Shown: positions 1,374-35,110, counted from the first letter of the stretch. The stretch is 64,000 bases of DNA from Flaccisagitta enflata (GCA_965153355.1 OZ231126.1:33728001-33792000); one strand, 5' to 3'. Notes: a model not told the origin generated them from the letters alone. Program-made: numbers and translations.

Positions 1374-2048
1374 GAGCTGTATCGTCGTATTGTTTCTGTT
1401 GTTGTAGTCATATTTGTTGTTGCTATTGTTACTACCTGAGGTTAATCTCTTATTGATCCGCATAAGGTGATCCTGCCAAGAAAGATCAAATCCTCGTCCT
1501 TTGTGGAAATTCTGGAATCTTCTGAATTTCTTGACCGTTTCCGTTATCTGTTCCCGCTTCTCAACGTCGTCGTCGACAAAGTCGACTTGACAGCATCAGA
1601 GAGTCTAGTCGACGCCATCATCAACTTCGACGTCGAGATTCGATCCTGTTTCGTCAACTTCCGTCACGAAGAATTTCGAGTTTTTACCGACGCCCTCGTC
1701 AGTTGTCTCCGTCAGAAGGTGCTCTCGACGCCTTCGAAAGAGAACCCAAAGAAGATGCGAGATGCGGACGCGGAGCGCCTCGTCGACGAATTAGAAGCCT
1801 TTGGAAAATTCCTGGACTTCTTGGAGGAAGCGATGGACGACCGGCTGCGGGCAATGGAGGCGAAAAGATGGCAGTGGGCGAGGCTCGTTGATGAAAAGCA
1901 GAAGCAATTTGTGGAGGATGAGCGGAAGAAGCTAGTTGTAGAGGAGGATGAGAAGGGAGAAAGCCAACGAGGAAAGAAAGACGGGAGAGGCGATCACGAA
2001 AGGGAAAATGTTAGAAAACAAGATGGAAATCGGAAAGAGCATCTGCTG

Positions 2049-2085
<37 letters not shown>

Positions 2086-4393
2086 TAGAACAGCCGCGTA
2101 ATTCTCCTAGTGATGAGATAGAAACGAAATCCAATTATAGGGAAGCGGGCCCTCTTTTACAAAAGACATCCAATGAGAATTGCAATATTAACAATGACGT
2201 AAATAGTACTGAGGCTCAGCGAAGTCAATCCGACAACGTCACCAATAACGCCATGAATCAGGACAACAACGAAAACCTCGCCGTCTTCGCCAATTACGCC
2301 AACGTGTTTGAATCGATGGAATGGGGAATGAAGAAAAAAGACTGCGGAGCAAAGGACTGTCCTAGAAATGGTCAGCAGCAGTCGCCGCAGCAGCAGCAGC
2401 AGACGTTTGAAGGAGGACCGAATGGTGGCGCCGCATCTACGGTTCCTGATGCATTTCATGGTTTCTCCGGTGCACGTCTCTGTCTAGATTTCGATGTCTT
2501 GAAAACTGCGATTGGCGATCGATTAAGAGTGGCCAGTGCGGATGTTCATGATTCAGGAGGAGGAGGAGGTGGAGCCGGGCTACGCGACAGGGTTGGAGGT
2601 ATGCATGTTTTCACTCTCGTCCATCCGTGTGTCTTTTTCCTTGAATCTAATTGTTTGTGTGCGACAAAGCACCTCTATAACTGGCTGTGTCTGTTGGTTG
2701 GTCGGTCTGTTGGTCGGGTAACGCATTCGTTCGACGATCCACATGTTGCACCTTATTGGCCTACTTGTCCTTGTTCAAGTATAGTCAAACGAAAACCTGG
2801 ATTCTTAGACAAATTAGCATTTCTTGATACAGATGACCTTCATTCGTGGACGGTGATTCCAAATCCTGCTTTGCTCCTTTGTGCCACGCGAGATGGGCAC
2901 GTTCCGGGAATGACATCCGGTGGCGTCACGAGAAGTCAAGACGGCGCCATAAATGCACCTACATCCGGTTTTGCGGGGCAAGGTCAAAAATGGTCAAGTT
3001 TCGAAGCAGATCAAGTGACGTCGGGAAACATGTTCCCTATGGCAACCAAACAGCGCCAATCCGGCAACAGCGACAGCATCTTCCTACAAGAGACCGCCAA
3101 AGACATTGTCAATGCAGCCGTTACACACGCCGTCAATCAATATGAAGGGGAACAAATTGTCGTCCAGCAACAAATGTCAGGACCATCTTGGAAACAAGAA
3201 TCATCGCAACGCGCCTCGGCTGAAAATAATCAACGACAATCATGGAACCAAGAACCACCTCAAGTGTCGAGTAGTCAATCTCCGATCGGACTCGCATCCT
3301 CGAGGGAAATGAATATGGGTCAAGAGAGGCCAAGTGACGTTGGAGTAATCGACCGAGCGCCGTCCCCACTCATCACCAAAGAGGCTACGGCCGCGAAATC
3401 AAATTCGCCGCTAACGAAGCAACCGACGAGTAGCGGAGTCTTGAAGAACACCGAAAGTGGGGCATCGCCGGGATTTCCCACCGTCCCTCCCATCACCGGC
3501 GACGCTACCAACTGCCCAGCCAGTAGCTGCAGCGCCGCAAAAGCAGAAAAGATCAAGGAGATTTTCCAAATGGTCGCCGCGGAATTGGCGGAAATCGTCT
3601 GTTCCTGTCAAACGGCGCCGACTTCAGCGCCAGCGGCGACGGCGTCTTCTTCTGCGAGGACGACCGCGTCCAGCGCCGCCGTGAATGAAGAATTTGATAG
3701 AACTCTGAATAGACAAGTGAGTTTCGGACGAGATGTTCGAGGTCTGTCCTGGGAAGAAGTGAATAGAGAAGCGAAGAATCCATCTGGTGGCGGGATGGTT
3801 GGTAATAACCGATCGAGAAATTCGAGCGGAGCGATGGGGGAAAATTTGGAGGAAGATATGATTGGAGGAAGGCGTTATGACCAGAATTGGAACGAAAATG
3901 CGACAGCGTTTGATTCTGTGGGGAGAATAAAGAAAATGGATGGAGATCGGAGAAATGCGGGGAAAGAGGGAAGGAAAAAAGATAACGCGACAACGAGAGT
4001 AAGAGATTCGAGACAAGCGTCGGCTCGCGCAGCGGCTCGCGATGAGTCACGTGACACTCACGTCAAGGAATCAACAAAAGTAGAAGATGAAAACGTGACG
4101 ACAGAAAAAGAAAGAAAACTTGGAATAGAAGAAGAGAGTCAGGCAGAAAAGGCGGATGAAAGTCAAGCGGACGAATTCTTCGCGTCGCTTTTTGACATTT
4201 ACATGAAGAAAATGAAAAAGACGGAAAAAGAAAAGTTGTTGGACAGAGGGAAAAACGCAGGTGAGGAATGGAGGAGGAGATGAGTGAAAACGCACACAAA
4301 GAAAGGAGGAGAAGAGTGAAAACGCACACAAAGAAAGGAGAAGAAGAATAAAAACTCACACAAAACCAACCTCCCTCACACACACACACACAC

Positions 4394-12155: not shown

Positions 12156-13020
12156 TTATCTTCTTCTCAGTACATCTTGTAGGATTCTTGTTGATCCAAG
12201 CAGGCAGATTTTTTGCCACATAAATTGGTCGGGGCACCCAGGAATTTTTGTCAGTCTGTCAGATAGATTCATAGTGACAGCGCCAAGTCCCCCAATCACC
12301 ACCGGGATAATATCTGCATTTGTGCCCCACATCTTCTCAAGATCAACTTGGAGGGGGACCATATTTCGATATTTTTTCCATTCTCCTTCTTCCCAACATT
12401 TGTGTCCACTGGACAGGATATATCTGTTATGAACATTTTTTTGTTGATTTTGCCCTTGATTATGATGACAGGTCTATTGGCTCCAACAGGTCTCGCTGTT
12501 ACTATGGTTTGGTTGTACACAATTTCACATTTTTCAGATATGGTTACTTCAGGTGGATTGTGCATAAACCAATTCTCGTCCACTTGCAGTCCCAAGTGCT
12601 GGGAAGCCATGTAGTTTATGCACCTACAGATGTTGTTGTGTCTCGTGAAGTATTCACGTTTAACCAATACATCACATGCACCTAGAATATGGAAGATTGT
12701 TTCTGGGTCTTTTTTGCACATGCGACATCTGTCATCACTGCTTTTCAAAATATGTTTTTCGTGGAACTTAGTAATTAAAGCCAATTCCTGTGCCCCACAG
12801 ACGCAACTTTCAGTGTGCGGGCTGAGGTGACATTTTTTTAACCAAGCCATGGATTGCTTCATATCTGCATCGCCCTCTTGGAGTTTATGGGTAAATGCAC
12901 TGTGTAGTGGTTTGGCAAGGTATGCATGGGATTGTGACTTCGTTATGGCATCTGACTGTTTTGGCTAACACTCTTGCCTGGGCCATAACGGATATATCAA
13001 AGAAATTTTTTGGGATTTCG
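12156..13020 (-). mobile_element. Degenerate, 5'-truncated non-LTR retrotransposon of the RLE type (R4/Dong-like): CCHC zinc knuckle plus restriction-like endonuclease, frameshifted
   Basis: CRMCKKDPETIFHILGAC knuckle, RHN motif, a degenerate RPD motif (NRPVIII), ITDISCP, then a frameshift into DIIPVVIGGLGAV...QKICLLGSTRILQDVL*. Confidence 0.85.
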
Positions 13021-16183: not shown

Positions 16184-19100
16184 ATGTCTACCATGAAAAG
16201 AAGAAGGCGATTGATATCCCTCTCATATTCTACGGAAAAGAATGATGAGCCGGAGGAGGAAGAGGAAGTTGAGGCGACTCTCCAACAGTCTACAACGTCG
16301 GAAAATCTCGTCGTCGACGTCGACAGCAACGACAGCAGTAGCAGCAGCCTGCCGCGACGCAGCACGATCCCGAAGGCGGAACGCGTCGTCGACCGGAGTC
16401 TGTGGCTGCGCATCGGCGACATCCGCTTCAATCCAACGGTGACGTTCGCCTCCATCATCTTCGTCTGGCTATTCGTTGCTTGGTGCATCGTATCACCGGA
16501 AGGGGCGCAAGTGCGTATCTCCGCCACCAGGGATTGGATATCCCATCACTTCACCTGGATGTACGTGGCAATCATGAACGGCTGGATCTTGTTTTGGATA
16601 TGGGTTTATTTCTCGAAATATTCCTCGATCAAGTTGGGCCGCGACGACGAAGAGCCCGAATTTAACGACGCGAGTTGGTTCATGATGTTTTTCTCCTGCG
16701 GCGTTAGCATTGGATTATTTTTCTACAGCGTTTCGGAACCTATGGCGCATTACACTCAGGTTTTTATTCTAAAATACCATTCGCAACCTTGTATGGTATG
16801 CGAATGATTTCTTCAAGCAATGATATTATAACATTGACTATTAAACAATTCATTACACATAGCTCACTTGCGACGGATAAGGATGGGCATTGATAGCCAC
16901 CGGGAGCGGGATTGATTTGATTGCGTTAATTTTTTGTCAACCAAAACCTTAATATTCCAGTAAGTGTCTGGAATTTTTTCCTAAGAAACAAAATTGGTGA
17001 TGTGATTGAATGCCGTTTTCCTTATTGATTTTCTCTTTGCGGCTCATTGCGGCACACCTTTTAAAGGTTGTCTTTTCATATGCAAATTAGTGTGAGTGAC
17101 TAATTTGCATAAGAAAATGTTTCTTAGCGACTTCCAAGTTTCATAGAATTTTAAGGGATGGTGGTAGATGTTGTTTGGAAGCTATGGCCCTAATTTCAAT
17201 CCAAATTTCGCATTTCTAAAGCAGGAAAATGGCGATTTGAGCAAAAACAAAAATGAAAAGACGAATTGACGTTTAATTTGATCATATTTGCCAACATCCA
17301 CTAGAAAAAAAATTGCTTGATAACATCTTGCTAGACGCATATGACTATAACGCAACCAGAACAAGTCATCCAAGGATCGCACATGGTCAGTACTGCCGAT
17401 GCTTGACTATGAGTTGAGTGAAAAATTGCAAAGGCCATGTCACAGCTCTAGGGGCCGATGTTTGTGGACACCTGAGGGCAATTTAATTTTCCGCTGATTC
17501 ATTGGGAATGGTGGATTCTATCCTGGGGATTCATTGGAAATTCACCGAGAGGCTGGATTTTTCCTGCCCAAGAGGTCTATGATTTGATTTGACCCTGGAG
17601 GCCTGGTTTCTCTCTCTTTCCTTTTTGAGGCCTGAGAGGTTGATTGGAGGCCTGAGGTTGATTTGAGGCCTGAGAGGCAGATTTGAGGCCTAAGACGAGG
17701 TTGAGGCCTGAGAGGCTGGATTTGAGGCCTGAAAGGCAGAAGCTGGGAGGGGACGACACGCACGGACGGACGCCGGACGGACGTATGGAAATTCACCCCT
17801 GTGTCCTACAGGACATCGGCCCTATGGGGCCGCTGCCCAAAAAGGGTAAAAAATACTTATTTGATTTTTGACCACTCCATACTAGCAATGACTACTGCCA
17901 TGTTATGACATCTTACAGAGCATTGTATTTGGTTAAAATATTCCAGCGGGCTTACTTTAAGGATTCACATTACAGCATAACCGATATGGGGCCGATCAAT
18001 TTGCTCCGGACAACCTGTTGGCGCAACAATCGATTAACTTGGCGCTGTTTCATTGGGGAATACACGGATGGATCGTCTACTCCATGGTTGGATGCCTCAT
18101 CGGAATCATCTCTTACCGAAAAGGTCATTGGATTTTTCCTGCTGTCGGTCAATCTGTCTATCTATCTGTATCTCTCTCTCTCTCTCTCTCACCCTCACTC
18201 TCTCCCTCACGACCTCACCCTCTCTCTTCCTTATTACTCAAATTCCATTTCTATCCTAAGGTCTTCCAATGTCGTTAAAAAGTTGTTTTTGGCCCCTGAT
18301 TGGTGACAAGATTTTTGGTTTACTCGGAGATGTCGTCGATATTCTGTCAATCTTTACAACACTCTTTGGCGTTTGCACCGCTTTTGGATTAGGTGCTCGG
18401 CAAATCAACCAAGGTTTGTTGGTGCCGAGCAAGGACGAATATGTTTGGGCGGGCAACAGTAAAGCCCATTTTTTTAGCTGAAATAAGCCATGACTTTTTG
18501 CTTAAACCGTAAATCATCGGCAATTTGAATACAATGAATAACTAGTCATCCAAGGATCGCACATGGTCAGCGGTACCCGATGCCCTGCTTTATTGCTTTT
18601 TCAAAGTACTATCCTGGAAAAAATAAAAGTCCAAGCTGAATAAAAGAATGATTTGATTTTAAATCTGATAAGATAATGACCATTTTCATAAGCCCAGTGT
18701 TTAGAATAACGTTTTTAGATTTTAGAAACCACTTGCATCTGTAAGGGTATGTCTTGGTAAAGAGTATGATGCCATTTTGAAGTAAACTACTTGATTAAAA
18801 AAAAACAACCGCACCCTATTTTGAGTTAAAGAATAAGAAAAACATATAATTTGAACATTTTTTTGTTGAGGTGATTTGAAAGATTTTCAAATTTTCTTTC
18901 ATTCTAGACCAATCTCAAAACTGTATCTCAAACGGTTTAGGAGCTAGAGCTTGTCAAAGTTATCTTCTAATTTGTAAAGATACTCATTTTTCAATTGGAT
19001 TGCAAACTGAAAATGGCAATGTTTTTACTTATTCTTATGCCATTTCTAAACGAATAAAGCTAGAATTTCCAGATTGGAACCAAATAAAAGATCTTTTCAA

Positions 19101-21651
19101 GAGCTTTCTTACAGTCTAAGATCTTATTAGTTATTTTGAAATTCAGTATGACAATTTGCCATTTAAAAGTGCGGCTTTTTTTATGAGTTGAGTAGTAATG
19201 CCCCCACACATTTTTTTACAATTTCTAAGAATGAACGTTCTCACTCTTTTTGATGTAGAATCCAAATGAATAGAGCTATGAATCTCTGCTTGGCGGCAAT
19301 AGATAGCCCTGATCAAGAGCTTCAAAATGGTCACTGATTTTCCTTTCAAATATATCAAAGCGACACTGTAACAAAACCTCATGCATTTATAATCTATTCA
19401 AGTTTTGTGTCGATTTCCTAAGATCAACACTTCCACTTATTTTGATGTAAAATCTAAACGAACAACGCAATGAGTCTCAGCTTGGCACCATTTGCTAGCC
19501 CTGTTTATTAGCTGCATTTTGGTCACCAATTTTTATGTCAAATCATGTATATCAAAGCTATAATATGACAAAACGTCCTGGACTTTTATTTTTTCCTAGA
19601 TAGTAGTGAGGTGGAAGCAGAGCAGCGGCCTCAAACAGCTGATGTCCTGCAGAACACAGGGGTGAATCATTACATCCTTCCCTCTCTGACTGATTTGGGA
19701 GGGTTGACTTATTTTAGGCCTGTGATGATTGGTTTTGGATTCGAGTTATTTAGGTGTGATTAAGCAGGGGTTTTGTTTCACAGGCTAGGATTTGGGCTTG
19801 AATGCTGAGATGAGAGCCTCATGGCTGGGATTAGGGCCTCAATGCTAGAATTTGGGTCTTCAAGCTGGGATTTAGACTTTTAGGCTGAGATTTGGGCCAT
19901 CAGGCTCGGATTTGGGCCATCAGTCTGGGACTTGAGTCTTGAAGACATTTGGGTCTAAGGTCCTCGGGGGAGGGGGAACATATGGACGGATGGTCATAAT
20001 AGTTCACCCCTGTGTTCTACAGGACATCGGCACTTTGGGGCCGCTGCCCAAAAAGGGCTATGAAATGGTAGGCGCATCTTTCGCACCTGAGGGGGTTCAA
20101 GCCACACAGTAGTTTATACTAATTATTTTTGGTCTGAGACGAGGATTGTTGCGTTTTCTAGCCTTTATTCGCAGTAAAAACTCTACTAACAATTCTTATG
20201 AAGGATTCCACATATTGAACCCGGAAATCGACATCAAGATGACGACTCAAGTGATGATCATATGGGTGACAACGTTCATCGCCACGATTTCAACCGTCAC
20301 CGGCATTGCCGTCGGCATAAGACGAATCTCAGAGTTCTGCATGGGAGTCGGATTTTTCATTCTCGGATGCTCGTTTTATCTAGATGATCCTGTCTTTACC
20401 CTCAATTCCTTTGTACAGGTATTTCGAATGTCCTCAACTGACCTTATAATTTACCAGATCAAAACAAGTGACTGATTTATGTCATTGTAAATTCAAAAGG
20501 GCATCCATCATTGTTAATAAAGGCCCTGTCCACCATTTTAATTCCATTTATGCAAATGGTGAGATATTTATGAAGGGATGATGATCATTTCCGCAGAACA
20601 TCGGGTTTTACCTCTCCACGTTGGTCCAACTTGGCTGTCACACCGACTCGTGGGAGCAATCGGGTCCTTCCCATGGAGGCGTGGATCGCGGCCGCGCCTA
20701 CGACGACGGCAAAGCCGACGGCCCAAAGGAATGGATGTCCATGTGGACGACCTTCTTCTGGGGCTTTTGGTATTCCTACGCGCCCTTCGTCGGCATCTTC
20801 TTGGCCAAGATCTCGAGAGGGCGGACGATTCGCGAGTTTATCAACGGCTCCATGACCACGCCCATCATCTTCGTCTTCTTCTGGGTGACGAATTTCGGCG
20901 GCTCCGGTCTCAAAATGGAAAGAGAAGCCGCTGGATTGAGTCTCTGCTGCGATCACAGACTCAATCTCTCCGCGGTCGCGCTGAGAGCGTCGGAATATCA
21001 CAACGCGGCATTCAATCGTTCCGTCGTTTTTGAAAACGACGATTTGAACCAACCTCCAGTGAAACTTCCCGTTGTAGACCACAGTCTTTGCGACCAATCG
21101 AAAGGGTGCGACCAGTGCTCCGATTCGTTTTGGAAAAGATATGCGCCGAAACTTTCGGAAGTCGAGTCTGCGTCTCCCGTTACGTCGGAGCCGGATGTCA
21201 AAACTTTTCCTCTTCCTCCTCCATCTTCCTACGCGACGATGGCGTCTTTCCTGACCTCGATCGCCAACGGAAGTCTTCACGCCAACATGCCGACTCCGTT
21301 TCGTGACGGCCGGCGCGAGATCGTCCGTTTATCTTGTCTGGAAGTGGAGCATCAGTGGTTCGCGTTGCTACGTTCTTACGGCGGACTCGGACAATTCCTA
21401 TCCGTCATCTCGATGGGCGCCATCGTGCTCTATTTCGTCACTTCCGCCGACTCGGCGGCTCTCGTCATCGACAGTCTTTCGGCCAATGGATCGGAAACGA
21501 CGCCCAGAGTGCAGAGAGCATTTTGGTCCCTCATGGTAAGATTGTTGTAGCAAGAGAGGTTGTAAATTTGCACAATGAAAATGTGAAATGAATTTCTCGT
21601 TTCCCCAGTGTCTTGCCTTTCTTGACTTTCTATCAGTCTGCCTCTCTTTTT

Positions 21652-21687
<36 letters not shown>

Positions 21688-21807
21688 CGTCGCAGCAGGG
21701 GAGAGGAAAGCCATATTTCTTCATTGTCGGGGTCTTCATATGAGTTAGTGGGTTACCCCTTTTGTTTTTTCTTTTTTCTTTTCTTACTTTTTTTCCCTCC
21801 TTGTGTC

Positions 21808-21858
<51 letters not shown>

Positions 21859-22120
21859 TTTTCTTTTTTCTTTCATTCTATGGTTTTAATAATCCATTCA
21901 TTCATGCCTTTATTTGCTCATTCATTGATTCATTCACTTATTCTCTTATTCTTTGTTTCTTTGTTTCTTTATTTTTTAATTTCTCTTTTTCTCTCTCTTC
22001 TTTCTTTTTTTCTTTGTTTATTTCTTCCTTTGTTTCCTTGTCTCTTTTTTGTTTCTTTCTCTCTCTCTTGCTGTCTGATTTTCATCCTCTCTTTCCTTCT
22101 TTCTTTCTTCTTTCTCTTTT

Positions 22121-22184
<64 letters not shown>

Positions 22185-22208
22185 TTTTTCTTTCTTTCTT
22201 TCTTTATT

Positions 22209-22241
<33 letters not shown>

Positions 22242-25200
22242 GTTTCTTTCTTTGTTTCTTTCTTCTTTCTTTTACTCCCCTTTTTGGGCAGCGGCCCCAA
22301 AGGGCTGATGTCCTGTAGAACACAGGGGGGAATTTCCAGATGTCCACCTTTCGTCCGTCCGTCCCCGTTGGCCATCAAGACCTCAGATCTGCCCTCCCAG
22401 CCCTCAATTTAGCCTTCGAGGCCTCAAATCAGCCTTCCAGGCTTATAATCAGCCCCCTCAGCTTCAGATCTGCCCTCCAGACCTCAAATCTGCCCTCCAG
22501 ACCTTCAATTAGCCTCTAAAGCATCAAACCAGCTGTCCGTGGCGCAAATTTGCCCTCAAAACCTCAAATCAGCTCTCCAAGCCTTAATTCTGCCCTCCAG
22601 ACTTCAAATATGCCTTCAGTGGCCTAAATTAGTTTTCTAAGGCCTGAAATATGCCCCCTCAGGACATCTGGAAATTCCCCCCTGTGTTCTATAGGACATC
22701 GGTCCTTTGGGGCCGCTGCCCTGCTCTCACTCCACTTCATGACTGAATCACTCCCAGCAGGGCATTGGGTACCGCTGACCATGTGCGATCCTTGGCTGAC
22801 TAGTTTTCTCGTTCCCACACTCTTAGTCCAGTCTGTTGATGCAAGAAATTAAGCAAACTGGGCTTTTCTGGCACAAAGCTTAAAAATTTGCACACAAGTC
22901 TTTAAAGTCATATAGATCATGATAATGAAAGGTGCAGGTCAAAAAAATTTGTGAACCTATCTTAAAGATTCATTAAACATTTTTAAAATCATGCAATCGC
23001 CAAACCATTTGCCTCAGGGCAATAGAATTTTATAAGCTGGAAAACGTTTTATACATGTCCATACCAAATTTCAACTCAATAGCTTTTTTAGAAGCAGAGA
23101 TATAGCCAATTTACTTTGGGATGTATTTTTCTCAAAAAAGCCCTTTTTTAAAAAAAAAGCGCAATTTTTATATACAAAAATAAATTGGCTAGGTACAATT
23201 GTACAATCATCTGTGATCTTTTGTTTTTAAGACTTTTTAAGCGTATAATTTAAAATCAGGGTTAGGGGTGGGTTTAGGGTTAGGGATAGTTTTAGGGTTA
23301 GGGTTAGGGACAGGGTTAGCTTTAGGGCTGAGGGTTTGCTGGGTTTTATGTATTACGGCCCAAAGCTATTCGAATTAAAGCTTCGGCTCTGGCGGAGGAT
23401 TTGGAAAGGAAAACAAAATCGTGCAGAGAATCATTCATTTTGTCCATTGGCTATATCTCTGCTTTGAATAAAGATAAAGAGCTGAAATTAAGTGTGCATA
23501 TGTACAAAATGCATAATTCTTAGCTCTCTAAATGCATACATGGCCAAAAGATATTCGTTATTCGTTATCTTCAGTTATTCGAATAAAAATGGTGATTATC
23601 TTCATCTTATCTTTTTGTTATTTTGAGAGCTCGAATAATCATCTTATCTTTATCTTATCTTTTCGATTTTGGGAGATAATCTTATTCAAAAAAATTCCAA
23701 TAACCTCGAATAATGCTTTTTTACCAGAATACGCGTAAAGTCATAGCCTCATAGGAAGTTCTTATAATTGTATTTTTCAGCAGTGGCAGCACGATAGAGG
23801 GACCCAGACAAAGGAAAAAAAATGTTTTTTTTACTCAAACTAATGCCTTTTCTAACATCTCTGAATTTTTGTTGGTTTTCAAGAGCTAAATAAGCCATTC
23901 TAGGGAGCGTCTTTTTCAGTGAACTCATGATTTTAAGAAGTACTTTGCACATCTTTTTTAGTATATTTCAACCTTATATGGGAACGAGGGCCCACTGGTC
24001 AAATGTTGGTCATTGAAGGCTGATTAGGGGGTGTATATGCAAACAAGTTACAAAAAACAGGGTGCACTTTAAATTCACGATATCAGCCTAATCAGGGTAT
24101 GCATAATTGCATAATTGTCTATTGTATTGGTTATTCTCATGGTTTATCCTTCTCTAGCTCTCTTAGAGTCGTATGTCAGGGATTCATCCTCAATGATTTG
24201 TCAGCGCATTGTTATTCGAAAAGTTATTCGAAAAACGAATAAAAGATCATCATCTTATCTTATCTTCATCTTTGGCAAAATGATGCTTTATCTTATCTTA
24301 TTTTATCTTTTTGAAAATTTAGTGGTTTTATCTTTTATCTTATTCAAATAATCAAGGTGAGTTATCTTGGACAATGGACATGTATGTTTAAATGTCATTG
24401 CTGTCACTCAAGCGGTTTGGCAATGGCATAATATGAAAATTTTAAATGAATTTCTAAGATAGGTGCTCAAATTTTTTTGATGTGCACCTATCGTATTCAT
24501 GATCTACATGGCTTAAAATTTTATTTTCCAAATTTCAATGCTTTGTGCTGGAAAAGCCGAGTCCTTTCTTCAATAACCTGGACTATCTGCCCATCTTCCG
24601 TTCTCGCCTCCTTCATTTCTATATTTCCCTCCTCTCCACTCCCTTCTACAGGTTGGTCTTACCGCGACAGCCATCTTAGTAACCACGGGAGAGACCGGCT
24701 TACGAACTTTACAATCCGTTCCTCTCATCATGGGCTTCCCGTACGCCTTCATTATCTGCTTTATGTGTTTCTCACTTTACTTCCTGTTACGTCACGAGAA
24801 GAACGAGATCAACTTGATGACGGATCGACGATTTCGACTCCACATTCTCGATCCCGTCACTCGACTCAAACCCAAATCTCTCGTCAACTTTGTCTTCAAC
24901 TTCATCGCGGCGCCGTGGACGATCGCCAGTGCCGGCGCCCAGCTGCTCGACGTCGCCTTCTGGCAGTTGCTGCTGCTTCTCGGCGTCACATGGGGCGGCG
25001 CCGTCGGGTTGGCGTTGGCCTCGATCGTGGCGCCGGATGTGATGGCGTTATCTTTAATCTTTTACGTCACGTTCGCCGTTTCCGTGGCGACGATTCGCTA
25101 CGCCATTCGTGGCGTGTGTGGCGTGGCCGGTGGCGTGATGTGTGACGGTTTCGTCGGATTTTGTTTGTTTCCGGCGTTTGCCATGCAAATTCAGGCCGAA

Positions 25201-25317
25201 GTGAGGACCGATGAGGAGAGTGAGAAGGGTGACAACGACGACGACAACGACGACGACGACGACGATGGTGATGTCGATGATGACGAGGAGAAGGAAATGA
25301 AAATGCGGAAGATTTAG
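16184..25317 (+). CDS. BCCT-family (betaine/carnitine/choline) transporter, 898 aa. Exons 16184-16759, 17976-18123, 18261-18413, 20204-20418, 20597-21535, 24652-25317
   Basis: Family motifs IKLGRDDEEPEFNDASWFMMFFSCGVSIGLFFYSVSEP, FHWGIHGWIVY, YRKGLP, WTTFFWGFWYSYAPFVGIFLAKISRGRTIREF and YFVTSADS. All five introns are GT-AG with compatible phases (0,1,1,0,0); a TACTAAC branch point precedes exon 4; spliced length is 2697 nt ending in TAG. Confidence 0.92.
18609..19603. mobile_element. Tc1/mariner-type MITE (TA TSD) in BCCT intron 3
   Basis: TA|ctatcctggaaaaaataaaagtcca ... tggacttttattttttcctagatag|TA. Confidence 0.75.
21760..22275. repeat. (TTTC)n pyrimidine-rich microsatellite
   Basis: Read directly from the sequence. 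Confidence 0.9.
22824..24585. mobile_element. Non-autonomous DNA transposon with TAG...CTA termini and 3-bp TSD TCT (Academ-like) in BCCT intron 5
   Basis: tct|tagtccag...ggcttttctggcacaaagc is inverted to gctttgtgctggaaaagcc...ctggacta|tct. Confidence 0.65.
23256..23345 (+). repeat. Degenerate interstitial (TTAGGG)n-like tract
   Basis: ttagggttagggatagttttagggttagggttagggacagggttag. Confidence 0.75.
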
Positions 25318-25784: not shown

Positions 25785-27320
25785 CAGTGCGGCGCATGAA
25801 AAAGTTTCCATCAGTTTAGAAGCTAGTTAATCCAGTTGTAATACTTTAAACAATTAAAATCTACAAGATTTTATAACTTTTTCAAAAACTCTACATATCT
25901 AGTCCAATCCCATTCATGTGACTAAAATCGTTAGAAATACCATAAAGGTTCAAAAATGATGAGCAATTTACTCATGTTTGAAAGCGAACAGCCTTTGATA
26001 GAACACAAAGTTGATTTTGTTTTCTTTAAATACATTGAAAACGGTCTATGATTCATACATCATATCCATGTTCATTTTAAAGAGCTTCAAAAACTCTACA
26101 AATCTTGACCAAGCAGAACTTTGTGGCTTGGTTTGTTTTGAAATGACATTAGTTTAAAGAAAAATGGTCATGTTTTCTATCAAGCAAAATATCACATTTT
26201 TTCACTCCTTTTTTTCAAGGTAATTTTGATATGCACAGGCCTGAAAATAGAGCGTGCCCGCGTGCCCGCGTGCCCGGTGCACGCAGTTCTGCTGTCGGGC
26301 ACGCAGCATTTACTAGCTGCGTGCCCGGCGTGCACGCTCTTGTGTCTCTTTTATTTTTTTCATCTCTCATGCTTAAAAAAAAAAAACAGAAAAAAATGAG
26401 CAAAATGGCCACTCTCGGCCTTCTTTTCACCTTCTCGCATTCAATCCTTCAACCAATCACTCATTCATTTATTCATTCATCCATCCATTTATTCTTTCAT
26501 TCACTCATTCATTCATTCATTCATTCATTCATTCATTCATTCATTCATTCTTTCTTTCTTTCTTTCTTTCTTTCTTAGATTGCGAGGCACAAGTATTTGT
26601 GTAAACTCGGCCTTTTTTTCATCTTTTACTTTGTGCGTTTAAAAGTGTGACACTGGAATTTCATCCTTTTTTGTTTTCAACTGAGAAAAAAAGGTGGATA
26701 CGTGTACCTGGCTGATTAGGCATGTATGAATGAACGTTTTTGATGAATGAACATTTTAATGAAAGTGAATGAAGGTGAGTGAAGGTGAGTGAAAGTGAAA
26801 GTGGGAAGGAGATAAGAAGAAAGATTGAAGCCAGGATTGGCAGTTTTGCGCGGTTTTGACATTTGCGCAATAGACTGACAGACCAACCAACCGACCAATT
26901 GAGGGACAGGCATGACTTCTTATACACACATAAAGATAAAGTCAAATTAAGCTTAGCCTAACTTTTTTTCTAATCAATGCATCAAAACGCTCCAAAATTA
27001 AGAACGTTGTAATTATTTCACTAGTAGCTATCTTTATCTCATTTGAAGGCTTCAGAAAAAACATGTGTGGTTAGAAGTTTGGTAAAACAACGTTTTTTAC
27101 CGGGCACGCTCTTTTCCTGTCGGGCTCGCTAAAATTTTGGGGTGCGTGCCCGGCGTGCACGCTTAGAAGAAATACTAATTTCAGGCCTGGATATGTACTA
27201 CTTCAAATCAATATCACGCCTAAATGAAAAGAGCTAGAATCAAATCAATGTCACGCCTAAACAAAAAGAGCTAGAAATCTGAGATTGACAAAATTGGAAA
27301 CTTTTTTATGCGCCCCACTG
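25785..27320. mobile_element. Tc1/mariner-type MITE (TA TSD) hosting nested insertions
   Basis: TA|cagtgcggcgcatgaaaaagtttcca ... tggaaacttttttatgcgccccactg|TA. Confidence 0.8.
26236..27189. mobile_element. hAT-type MITE nested in the Tc1 MITE
   Basis: TIRs caggcctgaaaatag and ctaatttcaggcctg; 8-bp TSD gatatgca/gatatgta; subterminal cgtgcccg motifs. Confidence 0.75.
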
Positions 27321-27840: not shown

Positions 27841-28860
27841 AACAAGGCCAAGAGATGTCCAATAGATGCGTCCTCTTTAGATGTAAGATATTATCATAGA
27901 AATTATTAAGATATAAAGATATTAAGATATAAAGATATGAAGATATAATAGTATGAAAATATAAAGATTCTGAGATAAAGAGAAAAACATACTGATTCCT
28001 CTCTACCCTCCCCCCCACGCCTCCCCCCGCGCCTCCCCACCCCTCCCCCCACCCCCCACGCCTCCCCCACGCCTCCCCACCCCTCCCCCCCACGCCTCCC
28101 TACGCCTCCCCCCACGCCTCCCAACCCCTCCCCCCACGCCCCCACGCCTCCCCACCCCTCCCCCCCACGCCTCCCTCCACGCCTCCCCCCACGCCTCCCC
28201 CCACGCCCCCCACGCCTCCCCACCCCTCCCCCCGCCTCATCCTCATGAAGAGACATGAAGAGACATGAAGGGACTTGGAGAGACATAGAGAGATATGGAG
28301 AGACATTTAGAGATACGGAGAGACATGTAGAGACATGAGGAAACATAAGGAGACATATAAGAGACATGAAGAGACATACAAGACATAAGAGACATAAGAG
28401 ACCTAAGAGATACAAGAGACATAAGAGATATAGGAGACATAAGAGATATAAGAGATAAAAGAGATACAAGAGATACAAGAGATACGAGATATGAGAGATA
28501 TAAGAGACAAAGGAGACGTATGAGACAAATAGGAGACATAAGAGACATATGGGAGACATATAGGAGACAAAAGAGACAACGAGACATAAGAGACATAAGA
28601 GACATAAGAGACCTAAGATACATAAGAGAAATAAGAGACATAAGAGATATAAGAGACATATAGGAGACAAAAGAGACAAAAGAGACGAAAGAGATGAAAG
28701 AGACATAAGAAATATTAGAGACAAGAAGAGACATGAAGAGAAATAAAGAGAAAACCTTGAAAATCGCGTTTTAGAATTTTCGCGTGACACTCAGACAGAC
28801 ACACAGACAGACCTACCAAGGGACAGACCCTCTTATAGAGATGCGAGGACGCATCTAAAA
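27841..28860 (-). mobile_element. Helentron/DINE-like element inflated by a C-rich (CCCCCACGCCT)n tract (28005-28235) and an (AGAGACATA)n satellite (28245-28740)
   Basis: Ends acaaggcc...tagatgcgtcctc and cagaccctcttatagagatgcgaggacgcatctaaaa are shared with other copies (42760, 54886, 59595). Confidence 0.65.
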
Positions 28861-29331
28861 ACATATGTAACCGAGGGATGGGCAGCCAGTTGGATAGGAA
28901 GTCGGACACGACTATCTTTCAGCCGCGATCAAGTGACTTGAAAATGAACCTAAAAAGTAACCCGGGGTTTTGATATCGTCGCAGACGGGTGTGTGTGGTT
29001 TTACTACTCCAACCCCAATCCCCTCCTCAGACACATACCCCACACATGTTCTCACACTTTTGTGGCTCGACCAATCGACGGGCGGGCGGACGGACCGACA
29101 AACAGACAGTTAAACACAGACTGAAAGACAGAAAGACAGACGGACAGATAGACAGTCGGACGGAAGGAAGGAAAAATCATCTCAAAGAGTCCACGACTAT
29201 AAATGATGAATCCTTATACGGTAACAAAAAGTTTCTTATCGTCATTACCTTGAGAAATACTCGCATAAAACATTTTACAACATCTCTTATCATTTTTCTT
29301 CAGGATCGGTCACCCTTCAAAAAAACTAAAA

Positions 29332-32300
29332 ATGTTGGCAAACTTGTTTCTCCTACTCATCGTTGGTCTTCAGTTCGTCGTTGGTAAGCGTAAAATAATA
29401 ATTTTCCACCTATCTTACGTAGTGCAAACTTGCACATGCGCAAGATGTCCGTCGTACAACTGAAGCATGTCATGTTTCCATCTCATTATCTTTACTTTAT
29501 GTACCCATGCCAAAAACGTGGTGTCAGAAAGTTTAAGCTCAAAAACGTAAAAAGGTACTAAAATTTTAAGTTATTATATCAATATTTCGAATTGCCAGGA
29601 AATTCATTGTCAAAAATTCTCATTGTTTTCTTTGTATATCGTTAATATTTACTCGAATGACAAAAAAATTCATGACGAAAAAAAATTAGGAAAATTTTCT
29701 TCAAAATGCCGCCAAGCAGAAATTTGTAGCTTAATTCGTTTAGAAATTATGATCAAATAAAAGTGAGAGATATAGCTCAGAGAGTCAAATGAATATGCTA
29801 TTTCCAGCAATTGAGATATTGACATTTTGAGTTTTAATTGTTGTAACTTTTAACGTTTTTGAGCTAGACCTTTCTGACACCACTCAAATGATAGATTTTT
29901 TGAAACTTTTTAAAAATGCTCATGCTCAAGTTTTGTCTCTTACTAACAAGCCAAGCAAGTCAAAACGATGTACCCTGTCATCAGATACAACTGCAACCAG
30001 CAAAACCTTTATTGTGCCCAAAGTAATCTTTTTGAAAGATTCAGATTTGTTTCATCTTGAAGCATATAACCTACCATTTTTTCATGCAAAATTCCACATC
30101 TCTGGCTTTAGCGGTTTGGCTTCCACATGATTTTAAAATTTGGTGAAATTTGATGTAATTTTGATCAAAAATAGCTTTTTTCAGCAGTTTTTGATGGTTA
30201 AATCTCTCTTATATTGGTTTAGGTTGAGCTTTATTGGTCATATTGGTCATAAATGAACACTATTTGATCATCCCCTTGAATTCTTGTGGATTTTTTTAGT
30301 AACTTTATAGAATATCTGGCCTAAAATGAAGAGCGATCTGACAAAAAACAAAGAAAACCTTTCAAAATTAGACGAAACTACTGTTTTGCCACATTAAATT
30401 CATCAATCTGATGAGTATTTCTAAAAATTCATAAACTGTGACATATTTTCTTTCATTCAAGACCAGTGTGACGATTTTAGCTTCTTTTGTTTAGAAATAA
30501 GGTTGATTTAAAGTTACATGTCTGCTCATGCGTTTTTTTACAAAGCCTTTCTTGGTGCTGACCACATTTTCACTCAAAATGATGTGTAGGCCAAACCGCT
30601 TGAGCCAGTGCTATGAAATTTTGCATGAATAAATGGTAGGTTATGTGCTTGCAGATAGCACCAATCAGAATTTCTCAAAATGAATACTCTAAGCACAATA
30701 AAGGTTCTGCTGGTTGCAGTCGTAATTGATGACAGGGTACATTTCTTTTCTTTGGGCATGGTTATGTATAAAGCAACCCTAGAAATCAATACTACATCCA
30801 ACCATGATACCACTAGTAATTAATCCGGTGCCATGTTGCTGTAGGAACCCCACTCGCGGAAGAGAAAAAAGGATGGGGTGATGGACAAGCCGCGTCAAAC
30901 TCTGGAGCCTCCAATTCTAACAACATAGATCTTGGTATGTTGCTCTGAGACGGTGACTTTAAAAAAATAAATGTAAATACCGTATTTCCTCTAATCTCAC
31001 TCAGTGGGAATTTTTTTGATACCCAATTTTAAAAAAAATCCTAAAAAACTTTAAACAAGGCCGGACACGCGACTAAATGTGTATCCGCGAGAGCAGCAAA
31101 ATAAAATAAGCTGACGATGGCAACAAAGTAAGCTGACGATAACAAGCCCAAGTATTTTGGCAGAACCAGTGATGCCCATAAATGACGAAAAGCTGAGTGT
31201 GACAGACAGACTCTTCGGCATAGGTAATTAAGTTGCGTGCACGCGACTAAAAATCAAAGCTTCAATTATGATTTATATGCTAAATAACACTCATCATTTG
31301 CTTGTCCTCTCCAAATATTAGGAAAGAAGGCGGAGGAAGAGAAGAGATGGTGGGATGGTAATGCTGCCTCCAACTCTGGCGCCAGCAACACTAACAACAT
31401 CAGATTGAAGAAGCAGAAGGAGGAAAAGAGATGGTGGGATGGAAATGCAGCTTCTAACTCTGGGGCTTCTAACACCAACAACATCAGTCTGAAAAAGAAA
31501 GAAGAAGAAAAGAGGTTGTGGGGTGGCGGAAACGGAGCATCTAACTCTGGCGCATCTAACACCAATAACATCAGCTTGAAAAAGAAGGAGGAAATGGAGA
31601 AAAGAAGGAGAGGTGGAAGAAAAGGTGGAATGAATGGAAATTCCGCATCAAACTCAGAAGCATCTAATGTCAACAACATTCATATTGGCAAAAAGCAGGA
31701 GGAGGAAAAAAGATTTTGGGGAAGCGGAGCAGCTGCCTCCAACAGTGAAGCCTCAAATGTCAACAACATCCTGAAGGGCAAAAGAGAGGAGAAAGAAAAA
31801 AGATGGTGGAATGGAAACGCAGCTTCGAACTCAGGTGCAAGCAACGCCAACAACATCAGATTGAAGAAGGGTGAGGAGGAAAAAAGATATTGGGGTGGCG
31901 GAGCAGCTGCTTCCAACAGTGAAGCCTCAAATGTAAACAACATCATGAAGGGCAAAAGAGAAGAGGAAGAAAAAAGATGGTGGAATGGAAATGCAGCCTC
32001 TAATTCTGGTGCAAGCAACGCCAACAACATTAGATTGAAGAAGGAGGAGGAAGAGAAAAGATATTGGGGTGGTGGAGCAGCTGCCTCCAACAGTGAAGCC
32101 TCAAATGTAAACAACATCATGAAGGGCAAAAGAGAAGAGGAAGAAAAAAGATGGTGGAATGGAAATGCAGCCTCTAATTCTGGTGCAAGCAACGCCAACA
32201 ACATTAGATTGAAGAAGGAGGAGGAAGAGAAAAGATATTGGGGTGGCGGAGCAGCTGCTTCCAACAGTGAAGCCTCAAATGTCAACAACATCATGAAGGG

Positions 32301-34278
32301 CAAAAGAGAAGAGGAAGAAAAAAGATGGTGGAATGGAAATGCAGCCTCTAATTCTGGTGCAAGCAACGCCAACAACATTAGATTGAAGAAGGAGGAGGAA
32401 GAGAAAAGATATTGGGGTGGCGGAGCAGCTGCTTCCAACAGTGAAGCCTCAAATGTAAACAACATCATGAAGGGCAAAAGAGAAGAGGAAGAAAAAAGAT
32501 GGTGGAATGGAAATGCAGCCTCTAATTCTGGTGCAAGCAACGCCAACAACATTAGATTGAAGAAGGAGGAGGAGGAGAAAAGATATTGGGGTGGTGGAGC
32601 AGCTGCCTCCAACAGTGAAGCCTCAAATGTCAACAACATCTTGAAGGGCAAAAGAGAAGAGGAAAAGAGGTTCTGGGGTGGAAACGCCGCCTCTAACAGT
32701 GGTGCATCTAACCAGAATAACATCGATTTGGGCAAAAGATGGGGTGGAAATGCTGCCACCAACAGTGAAGCTTCCAACCAAAACAACATCAATTTAGGAA
32801 AGAGATGGGGAGGTAATGCAGCCAGCAACAGTGAAGCTTCCAACCAGAACAACATCGATCTGGGAAAGAGATGGGGAGGAAATGCAGCTACCAACAGTGA
32901 AGCTTCCAACCAGAACAACATCAATTTGGGAAAGAGATGGGGAGGAAATGCAGCCACCAACAGTGAGGCTTCCAACCAGAACAACATCAATTTGGGAAAG
33001 AGATGGGGAGGAAATGCAGCCACCAACAGTGAGGCTTCCAACCAGAACAACATCAATTTGGGAAAGAGATGGGGAGGAAATGCAGCCACCAACAGTGAAG
33101 CTTCCAACCAGAACAACATCAATTTGGGAAAGAGATGGGGAGGAAATGCAGCCACCAACAGTGAGGCTTCCAACCAGAACAACATCAATTTGGGAAAGAG
33201 ATGGGGAGGAAATGCAGCCACCAACAGTGAAGCTTCCAACCAGAACAACATCAATTTGGGAAAGAGATGGGGAGGAAACGCTGCAACCAATAGTGAGGCT
33301 TCCAACCAGAACAACATTAATCTGGGGAAAAGAGGTGGCAATGCAGCTGCAAATAGTGGCGCTTGCAATGGTAACTTCATTATGAAAGGAAAGAGAGAGG
33401 AGCAGGCAAAGAGATTCTGGGGAGGTAATGCAGCATCCAACAGCGGAGCCTCCAACAAAAACAACATTAACCTGGGTAAGAAGGAAGAGGAGGAGAAGAG
33501 ATGGTGGGGTGGAAATGCTGCTTCCAACTCAGGTGCTAGTAACGCAAATAACATCCGATTGAAAAAGGATGAGGAGGAAAAAAGATATTGGGGTGGTGGA
33601 GCAGCTGCTTCAAACAGTGGAGCTTCAAATGTCAACAACATCATGAAGGGCAAGAGAGAGGAAGAAGAAAAGAGATTCTGGGGTGGAAACGCCGCCTCTA
33701 ACAGTGGTGCATCCAACCAAAATAATATCAACTTGGGCAAAAGAGGAGGAGCAGCGGCTTCAAACAGTGAAGCACACAATCAGAACAACATCATGCTTGG
33801 CAAAAGATGGGGCGGAAACGCAGCAACAAACAGTGAAGCCTCCAATCGGAACAACATCAATCTCGGTAAAAAGGAGGAGGAGGAGAAAAGATATTGGGGT
33901 GGTGGAGCAGCAGCTTCAAACAGTGAAGCTTCAAATGTCAACAACATTATGAAGGGCAAAAGAGATGAAGAAGAAAAGAGATGGTGGGACGGTAATGCTG
34001 CTTCCAATTCTGGTGCCAGCAATGTTAATAACATCAGTTTAAAGAAAAAGGAAGAAGAGAGGAGATGGTGGGGAGGCAATGCAGCTTCTAACAGTGGAGC
34101 ATCCAACCAGAATAACATCAGCTTGAAGAAAAAAGAGGAGAAAAGATTGTGGGGTGGTAATGCAGCTTCTAACAGCGGAGCATCAAATCAAAATAACATC
34201 AGCTTGAAGAAGAGAATGGGTGGAGCTGGTGCATCCAACAGTGAAGCCCACAACCAAAACAACATCATGCTCGGCTAG
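29332..34278 (+). CDS. Secreted multi-copy peptide (neuropeptide-like) precursor, 1032 aa, 38 related peptides. Coding exons 29332-29383, 30845-30934, 31322-34278
   Basis: Signal peptide MLANLFLLLIVGLQFVVG. Phase-1 introns 29384(gtaagc)-30844(tgtag) and 30935(gtatgt)-31321(attag). Exon 30845-30934 encodes the same repeat (GWGDGQAASNSGASNSNNIDLG). Repeats are flanked by KR/KK, acidic EEEE spacers and GKR/GKK amidation signals; the CDS ends ...NNIMLG-TAG. Repeat copies differ mostly at synonymous positions. Confidence 0.93.
29500..30765. mobile_element. Compound foldback/MITE sequence in the precursor intron
   Basis: Inverted pairs 29518-29560 vs 29843-29883 and 29968-30130 vs 30575-30742; outer ccatgcc/ggcatgg ends. 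Confidence 0.55.
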
Positions 34279-34671
34279 AAACGATATGTTATTTTCCTTG
34301 TTCTCATGAAGCGCATGAAACATTTTTATCTAAGTTGTTTTGTGTCAAACTATCATAAGTTATGTAATGTTAAATCATCTAAACGGTTTCCGTGGCCGTT
34401 TCATTGCCCGTTGTATTTTTTTTCTTTTAACTTCTTGTGTTTACATAAAACAAGCGTGAACATTATCATCAATTTTTCTTTGCCAGTGAAAACCAGTTGA
34501 CGAGCAAGACCAACCAGTGGCAGTGTCGATCAAAATTCTCGATAAGTGTCTCTTATTTTCCACTGAACTAGGGTCTTAGGGAGTTAAAAAAAGTGTGTTT
34601 GTGAAATTGTTTTTTTGTGTGTGATGTTTGCTCGCGCGCGTGCGTACGTGTGTGTGTGTGTGTGTGCGTGC

Positions 34672-34703
<32 letters not shown>

Positions 34704-34737
34704 CTCGTCTGTCTGTCTGTCTCTCTCTCTCTCTGTC

Positions 34738-34774
<37 letters not shown>

Positions 34775-34869
34775 GTCTGTCTGTCTGTCTCTCTCTCTCT
34801 TCTCTCTTTCTCTCCATTCATCACTTACAACTCAAATTGAATCGTTATTTTGTTAAAAGGGATCCCGGG

Positions 34870-35110
34870 CGCCGTTTACGTCACGCCGGGAAAAGGAGAG
34901 AGAGAGAGAGAGGGACGGTAAAAAGATTCATTCACACGCGATTTTACGGCCAACCAGAGGCCTTCCTGTCGTCCTTTTAGCACGTTAGCCAATCAGAAGG
35001 CTTCCTTTTCAAAGAGCCAATCAGACACTGAGAATCGAGGCCCCGGTGACGCGCCGGAAGTCAAGTGACGAGAAATGTTTCGTTCGTCTTTTCGTCAGTC
35101 ACGTGGTGCG
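34870..35110. promoter_or_regulatory. CpG-rich, TATA-less promoter-like cluster (CCAAT boxes, ETS, CRE/E-box-like sites)
   Basis: AGCCAATCAG at ~34987 and ~35015, a variant GGCCAACCAG at ~34948, CCGGAAGT at ~35054, TTACGTCA at ~34876, GTCACGTG at ~35098. Confidence 0.6.

Follow-up and report, generated by a model that had tools for sequence, protein, structure and literature searches.

Multi-copy precursors of amidated peptides are known from metazoans, among them the FMRFamide-type precursors and the cnidarian polyproteins of the RFamide/GLWamide type, and the standard layout of a multi-copy neuropeptide precursor combines acidic spacers, dibasic sites and a glycine that serves as amide donor. 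Insect apidaecin and amphibian skin peptides also derive from multi-copy precursors, and amylin and calcitonin are amyloid-prone amidated peptide hormones. Among fungi, KEPs are described as precursors that are secreted and processed at KR sites to give many peptides resembling each other (PMC6339444, PMC9769878), and the Rep1 precursor of Ustilago is reported to yield 11 peptides that form amyloid fibrils (PMC3133707). We analyzed a stretch of 64,000 nucleotides of Flaccisagitta enflata DNA (GCA_965153355.1, OZ231126.1:33728001-33792000; hereafter the window) with a gene that can be set beside these systems. The gene lies on the + strand and consists of three exons (29332-29383, 30845-30934 and 31322-34278) that are spliced and transcribed. 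Its product is predicted to be a prepropeptide of the prohormone type; judging by analogy, the released peptides would most likely be extracellular signals (neuropeptide, hormone or pheromone-like peptide), an assignment that we regard as evenly poised. Processing of the protein into peptides, whatever their role, appears clearly more probable than the signalling role itself.

The prohormone-type reading follows from the signal peptide, the units bounded by dibasic sites, the glycine donors, the acidic spacers and the conservation that falls on the peptides. These are shared with the metazoan amidated precursors, as are tens of near-identical copies and the shortness of the acidic spacers. Unlike those precursors, the protein has no sequence relation to any described family (no match in Pfam, and its motifs are not in the paper texts searched), and its peptides do not match the six ctenophore peptide ends of PMC9525235. 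The peptides also differ in being long (18-21 amino acids), conserved throughout and rich in Asn, Ser and Ala, and one third of the copies lack an amidation signal. With Ustilago maydis Rep1 and the fungal KEPs the gene shares, as known here from sequence, a precursor with a signal peptide and repeats parted by KR sites. In contrast to them, it showed no sequence similarity in any search, its relatives all come from marine metatranscriptome assemblies, and it carries amidation signals of the Gly-dibasic type, which to our knowledge are not a feature of KEPs. Its introns of 0.4-1.5 kb and its microsatellite-rich, gene-poor setting also differ, and nothing points to a fungus. Finally, the predicted peptides resemble hormones of the amylin/calcitonin type in being uncharged and rich in Asn, Ser, Ala and Gly, in having amidation signals and in containing a segment that differs at one residue from a hexapeptide known to form fibrils; unlike these hormones, they have no N-terminal disulphide ring and no homology to them, and the precursor is multi-copy rather than single-copy.

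To define the gene, RNA contigs of four runs were aligned to 28800-31700, X4 to X6 belonging to one study and X12 to another; contig depth in these runs cannot rank expression and uncovered parts prove nothing. The contigs show two joints with GT..AG boundaries, from 29382/3 to 30844/5 and from 30933/4 to 31321/2. Three independent proteins derived from complementary DNA (cDNA), P0001, P0024 and P0025, carry the same N-terminus and both joins, and the N-terminus of P0024 is identical to the exon 1 product. The joined coding sequence of 3099 bases is in frame and gives a protein of 1032 amino acids. The features of the gene are the following.

29278..29331, + strand: 5' untranslated region, with an approximate transcript start; five cDNA-derived proteins read through it into the ATG.
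29332..29383, + strand: coding part of exon 1, with the ATG, the predicted signal peptide MLANLFLLLIVGLQFVV and the first base of the Gly18 codon.
29384..30844, + strand: intron 1, 1461 bases, GT..AG, donor GTAAGC; joint found in one contig each of X5 and X6.
30845..30934, + strand: exon 2, with the propeptide TPLAEE-KK followed by the first peptide unit, GWGDGQAASNSGASNSNNIDL-G.
30935..31321, + strand: intron 2, 387 bases, GT..AG, donor GTATGT, acceptor TTAG; joint found in two contigs each of X4, X5 and X6.
31322..34278, + strand: coding part of exon 3, with 37 units, dibasic sites, acidic spacers and a TAG stop; RNA contigs cover its 5' part.

The five cDNA-derived proteins that extend upstream (P0001, P0024, P0025, P0152 and P0157) share one upstream start, which places the transcript start at about 29278; this coordinate is approximate, as there are small differences between the window and the cDNAs in this part. 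All five open with "MG", which may stem from a template-switch oligo ending in ATGGG. Parts of 30400-35000 were found in public runs (20 rows, including two DNA runs of one organism and marine metagenomes), eight of the rows being recorded as RNA and one of these eight being marked as probably DNA. On the + strand, the frame is open over 996 codons from 31288 to 34278. Two other candidates were discarded. A start codon at 30680 cannot be connected to exon 2 in any splice phase, and the RNA joints give the ATG at 29332; on the opposite strand, an open frame of 699 codons (31680-33779) is a by-product of the repeats, since splice signals, signal peptide and relatives all fit the + strand only.

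The arrangement of units is not the same in all sources. Between 31336 and 31700, the cDNA behind P0001 leaves the window after the first unit of exon 3 and goes into a different unit, and one RNA contig contains a joint that goes back by 168 bases, from 31509 to 31342. These discrepancies arise either because the array is polymorphic in copy number or because short-read assembly has collapsed it. Upstream of the gene, a simple-repeat stretch at 28800-28896, adjacent to loose ends of the (ACGG)n kind, was covered by contigs of the four RNA runs to a summed depth of between 458 and 40,630; this depth almost certainly results from cross-matching of low-complexity sequence from many organisms and not from expression of the locus.

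The predicted protein starts with MLANLFLLLIVGLQFVVG followed by TPLAEE (the full start being MLANLFLLLIVGLQFVVG-TPLAEEKK). As read from the sequence, its first 18 amino acids form a signal peptide whose core is hydrophobic and whose residue at -1 is small, and the V-x-G at its end is kept in the N-termini of relatives. A motif scan found 38 core units, 37 of them in exon 3 and the remaining one in exon 2 (about 30877-30934), and no further unit on either strand of the window. A preliminary description of the locus, which was made from the sequence alone and covered 31322..34278, began exactly at the first base of exon 3. Its total of 38 copies was right, although only 37 lie within that interval and the other belongs to exon 2 (30845-30934). 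Tandem Repeats Finder detected repeats of 84 bases, of 174 bases (5.7 copies, 95% matches) and of 66 bases (10 copies, 93% matches), and exon 3 can be divided accordingly.

31671..32664, + strand: sub-array of 174-base double units, WWNGNAASNSGASNANNIRL-KKEEEEKR followed by YWGGGAAASNSEASNVNNIMKG-KREEEEKR, in 5.7 copies with 95% matches.
32674..33333, + strand: 66-base sub-array without acidic spacers, ten WGGNAATNSEASNQNNINL-GKR units with 93% matches.
33334..34275, + strand: heterogeneous 3' units, some with spacers and some without; the C-terminal unit ends in Gly-stop.

Runs of at least two K/R residues (KR, KK or RR) flank every one of the 38 units. In 26 of them a glycine that may serve as amidation donor precedes the basic residues or the end of the protein (21 GKR, 4 GKK and 1 Gly-stop). 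Between dibasic sites there are 26 spacer pieces, namely 11 EEEE, 3 EEE, 2 DEEE and ten others that occur once each. Cleavage in silico gave 38 peptides in 23 distinct forms of 18-21 residues, the three main ones being WGGNAATNSEASNQNNINL, WWNGNAASNSGASNANNIRL and YWGGGAAASNSEASNVNNIMK, with the consensus [W/F/Y][W/G]-G-G-[N/A]-A-A-S-N-S-[G/E]-A-S-N-x-N-N-I-x-[L/I/K](-NH2). The peptides thus predicted begin with an aromatic residue and end with a hydrophobic, putatively amidated one. Asn (25.8%), Ala (16.9%), Ser (14.4%) and Gly (13.1%) together make up 70% of their residues. There is no Pro and a single Cys in the 38 peptides, and net charge ranges from -1 to +2, with 16 of 38 at zero. The statement of the preliminary description that the peptides are Pro-free and almost uncharged thus holds, and its view of the protein as a secreted repeat precursor built for dibasic cleavage, with acidic spacers, agrees with the predicted signal peptide and with the KR/KK/RR sites at 38 of 38 units.

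From these motifs we infer secretion, cleavage and amidation. The 18-residue signal peptide would direct the protein into the secretory pathway, where convertases of the kexin/furin type would cut the KR/KK/RR sites flanking each of the 38 units. A carboxypeptidase would then remove the basic residues, and in 26 units a peptidylglycine alpha-amidating monooxygenase would turn the C-terminal Gly into an amide. About 23 different peptides would result, each 18-21 residues long, with almost no charge and a high content of Asn, Ala, Ser and Gly.

The same multi-copy dibasic layout, with acidic spacers and frequent amidation signals, would also be expected if the precursor released secreted peptides for defence or offence (antimicrobial, antifouling or toxin-like), and the presence in marine metatranscriptomes of RNA contigs covering the gene is compatible with such a role. 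However, the peptides are neither cationic nor amphipathic, their charge staying between -1 and +2, they lack a Cys framework (one Cys in 38 peptides), and the strong conservation of their polar residues across lineages is unlike that of fast-evolving defence peptides. We consider a function in defence or offence unlikely.

The distribution of conserved and variable residues was analyzed over the 15 positions of the core. Positions A2, N4, S5, A7, N9, N11 and I13 are invariant in 38/38 units, together with the Gly directly before the core, and N12 is kept in 37/38. Position 6 is either E (20) or G (18) and position 8 is S in 35 units, H in two and C in one, while eight residue types occur at position 10 and seven at position 14. 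The residue lists of the preliminary description were correct when counted over the 38 copies. Its conclusion of a strict alternation stands for positions 5-11 and 13-14 but not for the rest: the odd positions 1 (A 35, G 2, S 1), 3 (S 28, T 9, A 1) and 15 (L 28, K 9, I 1) vary too, positions 3 and 15 even more than position 8, and the fixed positions include three even ones (2, 4 and 12). The two-residue periodicity is therefore limited to S5-x-A7-x-N9-x-N11 and I13-x14 and is lost at positions 1-5 and at N12. By chance, the four most variable of 15 positions would all be even with a probability of 35/1365 = 0.026, a figure calculated post hoc.

The arrays are young, with repeats 93-95% identical. 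At the DNA level, the invariant residues are encoded by 2-4 synonymous codons (four for A2, three each for A7 and I13), and S5 is encoded by both serine codon families (AGT 24, TCT 9, TCA 3, AGC 2). Because the invariant residues use several synonymous codons, the constraint acts at the level of the amino acids and goes beyond shared DNA descent. Judged by its codons, the pattern is one of purifying selection on the amino acids of the peptide core and not merely one of recent duplication.

Relatives were sought with a HMMER pass over 1.84 billion representatives (E <= 0.001), which gave 23 matches, seven of them accepted as relatives (P0001-P0004, P0007, P0008 and P0019). The other 16 (P0005, P0006, P0009-P0018 and P0020-P0023) were dropped; P0005, P0014, P0015 and P0016 were inspected and are unrelated repeat or low-complexity proteins, and the remaining 12 were judged only by their low identity of 20-32% and their great length. 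A family profile of ten fragments (A1) run against a library of 5.8 billion clusters retrieved 21 proteins, all from marine metatranscriptome assemblies; none of the 21 is named and none comes from NCBI, UniRef, EukProt or MMETSP. About six groups can be told apart among the relatives. Signal peptide and 5' leader are particular to each group, and a unit of the form W-G-x-A-A-S-N-S-x-A-[S/A]-N-x-N-N-I-x-[I/L]-G-[K/R][K/R] is common to all groups. The peptides are the conserved stretch, spacers and signal peptides having drifted. A Gly donor is present in 16 of 21 distinct units from other lineages, and the remaining five bear a short extension that ends in LGKR.

In these 21 units the variable positions are again 6, 8, 10 and 14, with entropies of 2.53, 1.45, 2.30 and 2.65 bits, respectively, compared to 0.86 at most for every other core position, and the variability profiles of the other lineages and of the window are correlated (Spearman correlation 0.73). 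As the same positions vary in other lineages, the site pattern is stable within the family. Of the variable positions, 6, 10 and 14 follow each other at i, i+4 and i+8, as in a helix. In the window the power at period 2 is 1.90 compared to 1.61 at period 4, and in the other lineages these values are 4.57 and 2.10; a helix was ranked below a strand because period 2 is clearly stronger in the other lineages.

Further searches were made with other queries and databases. Exon 3 had no match in Pfam. As the query of a protein search restricted to near-length proteins, it gave nothing at E <= 0.001 among 7999 candidates, a search in which low-complexity words may crowd out relatives. P0151 had no usable match in the ESM Atlas. 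Among JGI metagenome contigs, a single-protein query gave 587 pattern matches, of which 0 were confirmed. Six peptide motifs were absent from the main texts of papers as far as these were searched, supplements lying outside that search; the four matches that it gave were all irrelevant. Going by these comparisons, the family is new to annotation and its apparent kind, a multi-copy, dibasic-flanked, amidated secretory peptide precursor, is well known. Two proteins of a related lineage, P0159 and P0160, have the family signal peptide and about 1.5 units, joined to a C-terminal part of some 75 residues. This part contains Cys, is unrelated, and has neither a match in Pfam nor a counterpart in the window; an alternative isoform, a paralogue and a chimeric contig are the candidate explanations.

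The conservation pattern bears on a second proposal for the released peptides, namely that once freed by convertases they stack as cross-beta fibrils, either to form a secreted material (mucus, adhesive or coat) or to make up the dense core of granules used for storage, the spacers keeping the precursor soluble. On a hypothetical strand, S5, A7, N9, N11, I13 and L/I15 would lie on one face and positions 6, 8, 10 and 14 on the other, both here and in the other lineages. The composition (70% N/A/S/G, Pro-free, net charge near zero) fits, as does a set of 38 copies, which is suited to bulk production, and Ustilago Rep1 provides a precedent for amyloid peptides from a cleaved repeat precursor. The hexapeptide SNQNNI, present 13 times in the precursor, is one residue away from SNQNNF, reported as a fibril-forming hexapeptide of the prion protein with a solved crystal structure (PMC3372541). 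Against stacking, the alternation is incomplete, positions 1-5 and 11-13 being conserved on both faces, and the amidation signals are conserved across lineages, a trait expected of peptides with bioactivity and of no evident use to a bulk material.

Structure prediction gave beta-rich models of low confidence. AlphaFold2, run without alignment, modelled the ten-unit array (32674..33333) with a mean predicted local distance difference test score (pLDDT) of 59.9 and a predicted template modelling score of 0.49; for the heterogeneous part (33334..34275) the mean pLDDT was 44.7. Two strands per unit are drawn; in the ten-unit model these are N0-S5 and x10-x14, and E6-A7-S8-N9 forms the least confident turn, with pLDDT under 50. 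Since E6-N9 is modelled as a turn, the alternating segment is left out of the strands. A comparison of the model with the PDB by Foldseek gave 0 matches at E <= 0.001, the weak rows being assorted solenoids. AlphaFold2 has been reported to fold perfect repeats, even those of random sequence, into unrealistic beta-solenoids (PMC11795689). When four copies of a 42-residue double unit (32740-32865) were modelled as a complex, the score was 0.02, the mark being 0.32; this prediction gave no verdict and counts neither for nor against assembly. AlphaFold modelling, which the preliminary description had proposed for stacked peptides, gave beta-rich models of these two stretches at low confidence, with E6-N9 as a turn and with a method biased towards solenoids on repeats. 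For stacking fibrils, the two strands per unit are a point in favour, and the low scores, the documented over-prediction of beta-solenoids and the lack of a structural match are points against.

The same models are relevant to the idea that the protein is not cleaved at all and is a structural repeat protein of about 1000 residues, a beta-solenoid with Asn ladders. The regular strand pattern with a 22-residue period on the spacer-free array would agree with this, and it is countered by the pLDDT of 59.9 for the perfect array and 44.7 for the heterogeneous part, the absence of Foldseek matches at this threshold and the known bias of AlphaFold2 towards solenoids on repeats. Moreover, the spacing of the units is irregular, 22-residue units standing beside 29-residue units, and dibasic or Gly-dibasic motifs are conserved at every boundary between units, here and in the relatives. 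An uncleaved solenoid is, in our judgement, most improbable.

The preliminary description had preferred a self-assembling building block to a ligand of a G-protein-coupled receptor. This preference is not supported by the count of Gly-dibasic signals, a classical mark of bioactive secretory peptides that is found at 26/38 units here and at 16/21 elsewhere. Peptide hormones have been reported to be stored as amyloid in secretory granules (e.g. PMC4804206). A hormone can be a receptor ligand and form amyloid as well, which makes the choice between the two a false one. In its full form, the proposal is that the Asn/Ser/Ala peptides, released by convertases and amidated in part, make up a functional amyloid in an animal of the marine plankton, with the S5-A7-N9-N11-I13-L15 face as a steric zipper, serving as a secreted material or as a granule-stored signal. 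We regard the full proposal as improbable, and self-assembly as the main function as no less doubtful. If true, the full proposal would provide an animal counterpart of the fungal repellents, in a family so far known only from ocean metatranscriptomes.

Returning to the prohormone-type precursor with signalling products, several observations weigh against it. A Gly donor is absent in 12/38 units. Conservation spans the whole 15-20 residues and not only the C-terminus, a pattern uncommon among short neuropeptides and in keeping with a structural constraint. The composition and the 13 copies of SNQNNI resemble amyloid-forming segments. Finally, no annotated homologue was found in about 5.8 billion clustered proteins or in 1.84 billion representatives, so that a characterised relative is lacking.

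The surroundings of the gene were also analyzed. The window has 41% G+C and a CpG observed/expected ratio of 0.85, and it is microsatellite-rich and gene-poor. Dense (GT)n, (CT)n, (TGTC)n and (CATT)n microsatellites occur together with minisatellites of 9-27 bases, e.g. at 34638-34814, 28006-28751 and 26438-26574. TTAGGG x2 occurs twice at interstitial positions and TTAGG x2 never, which is too weak to use. Upstream of the peptide gene, a multi-exon gene for a BCCT-family transporter occupies 16385-25227 on the + strand.

~16385-16795, 17973-18125, 18260-18436, 20200-20418, 20588-21535 and 24646-25227, + strand: exon matches of the BCCT gene in Pfam, all at approximate coordinates.

It is 37-42% identical (summed tblastn) to entries of Pleurobrachia bachei, Nematostella vectensis and seven further entries, two of them derived from EukProt, none being a close relative. 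Pfam searches with 134 further open reading frames matched only the BCCT exons, apart from two sub-threshold low-complexity matches, and Rfam and tRNA scans of the window gave nothing. An open frame of 945 codons at 1446-4283 (+ strand), which contains poly-Q stretches and stretches rich in Ser and Asn and has no Pfam family, is probably a large exon of an uncharacterised gene. At 12296-12964 (- strand), a fragment resembling zf-RVT, the zinc-binding tail of reverse transcriptase, was found at E 7.9e-4, below the Pfam cut-off, and is likely a retroelement remnant.

Combined, the results describe a new expressed peptide family that is conserved across lineages and whose relatives were found only in marine metatranscriptome assemblies. 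Its predicted peptides are simple to synthesise, so that signalling and amyloid formation are both directly checkable, and conservation over the whole peptide and on one face makes the family a useful case for structural or storage constraints on secretory peptides. Should its host be a planktonic animal that branches early or has been little studied, the gene would be a concrete candidate for a lineage-specific peptidergic signal.

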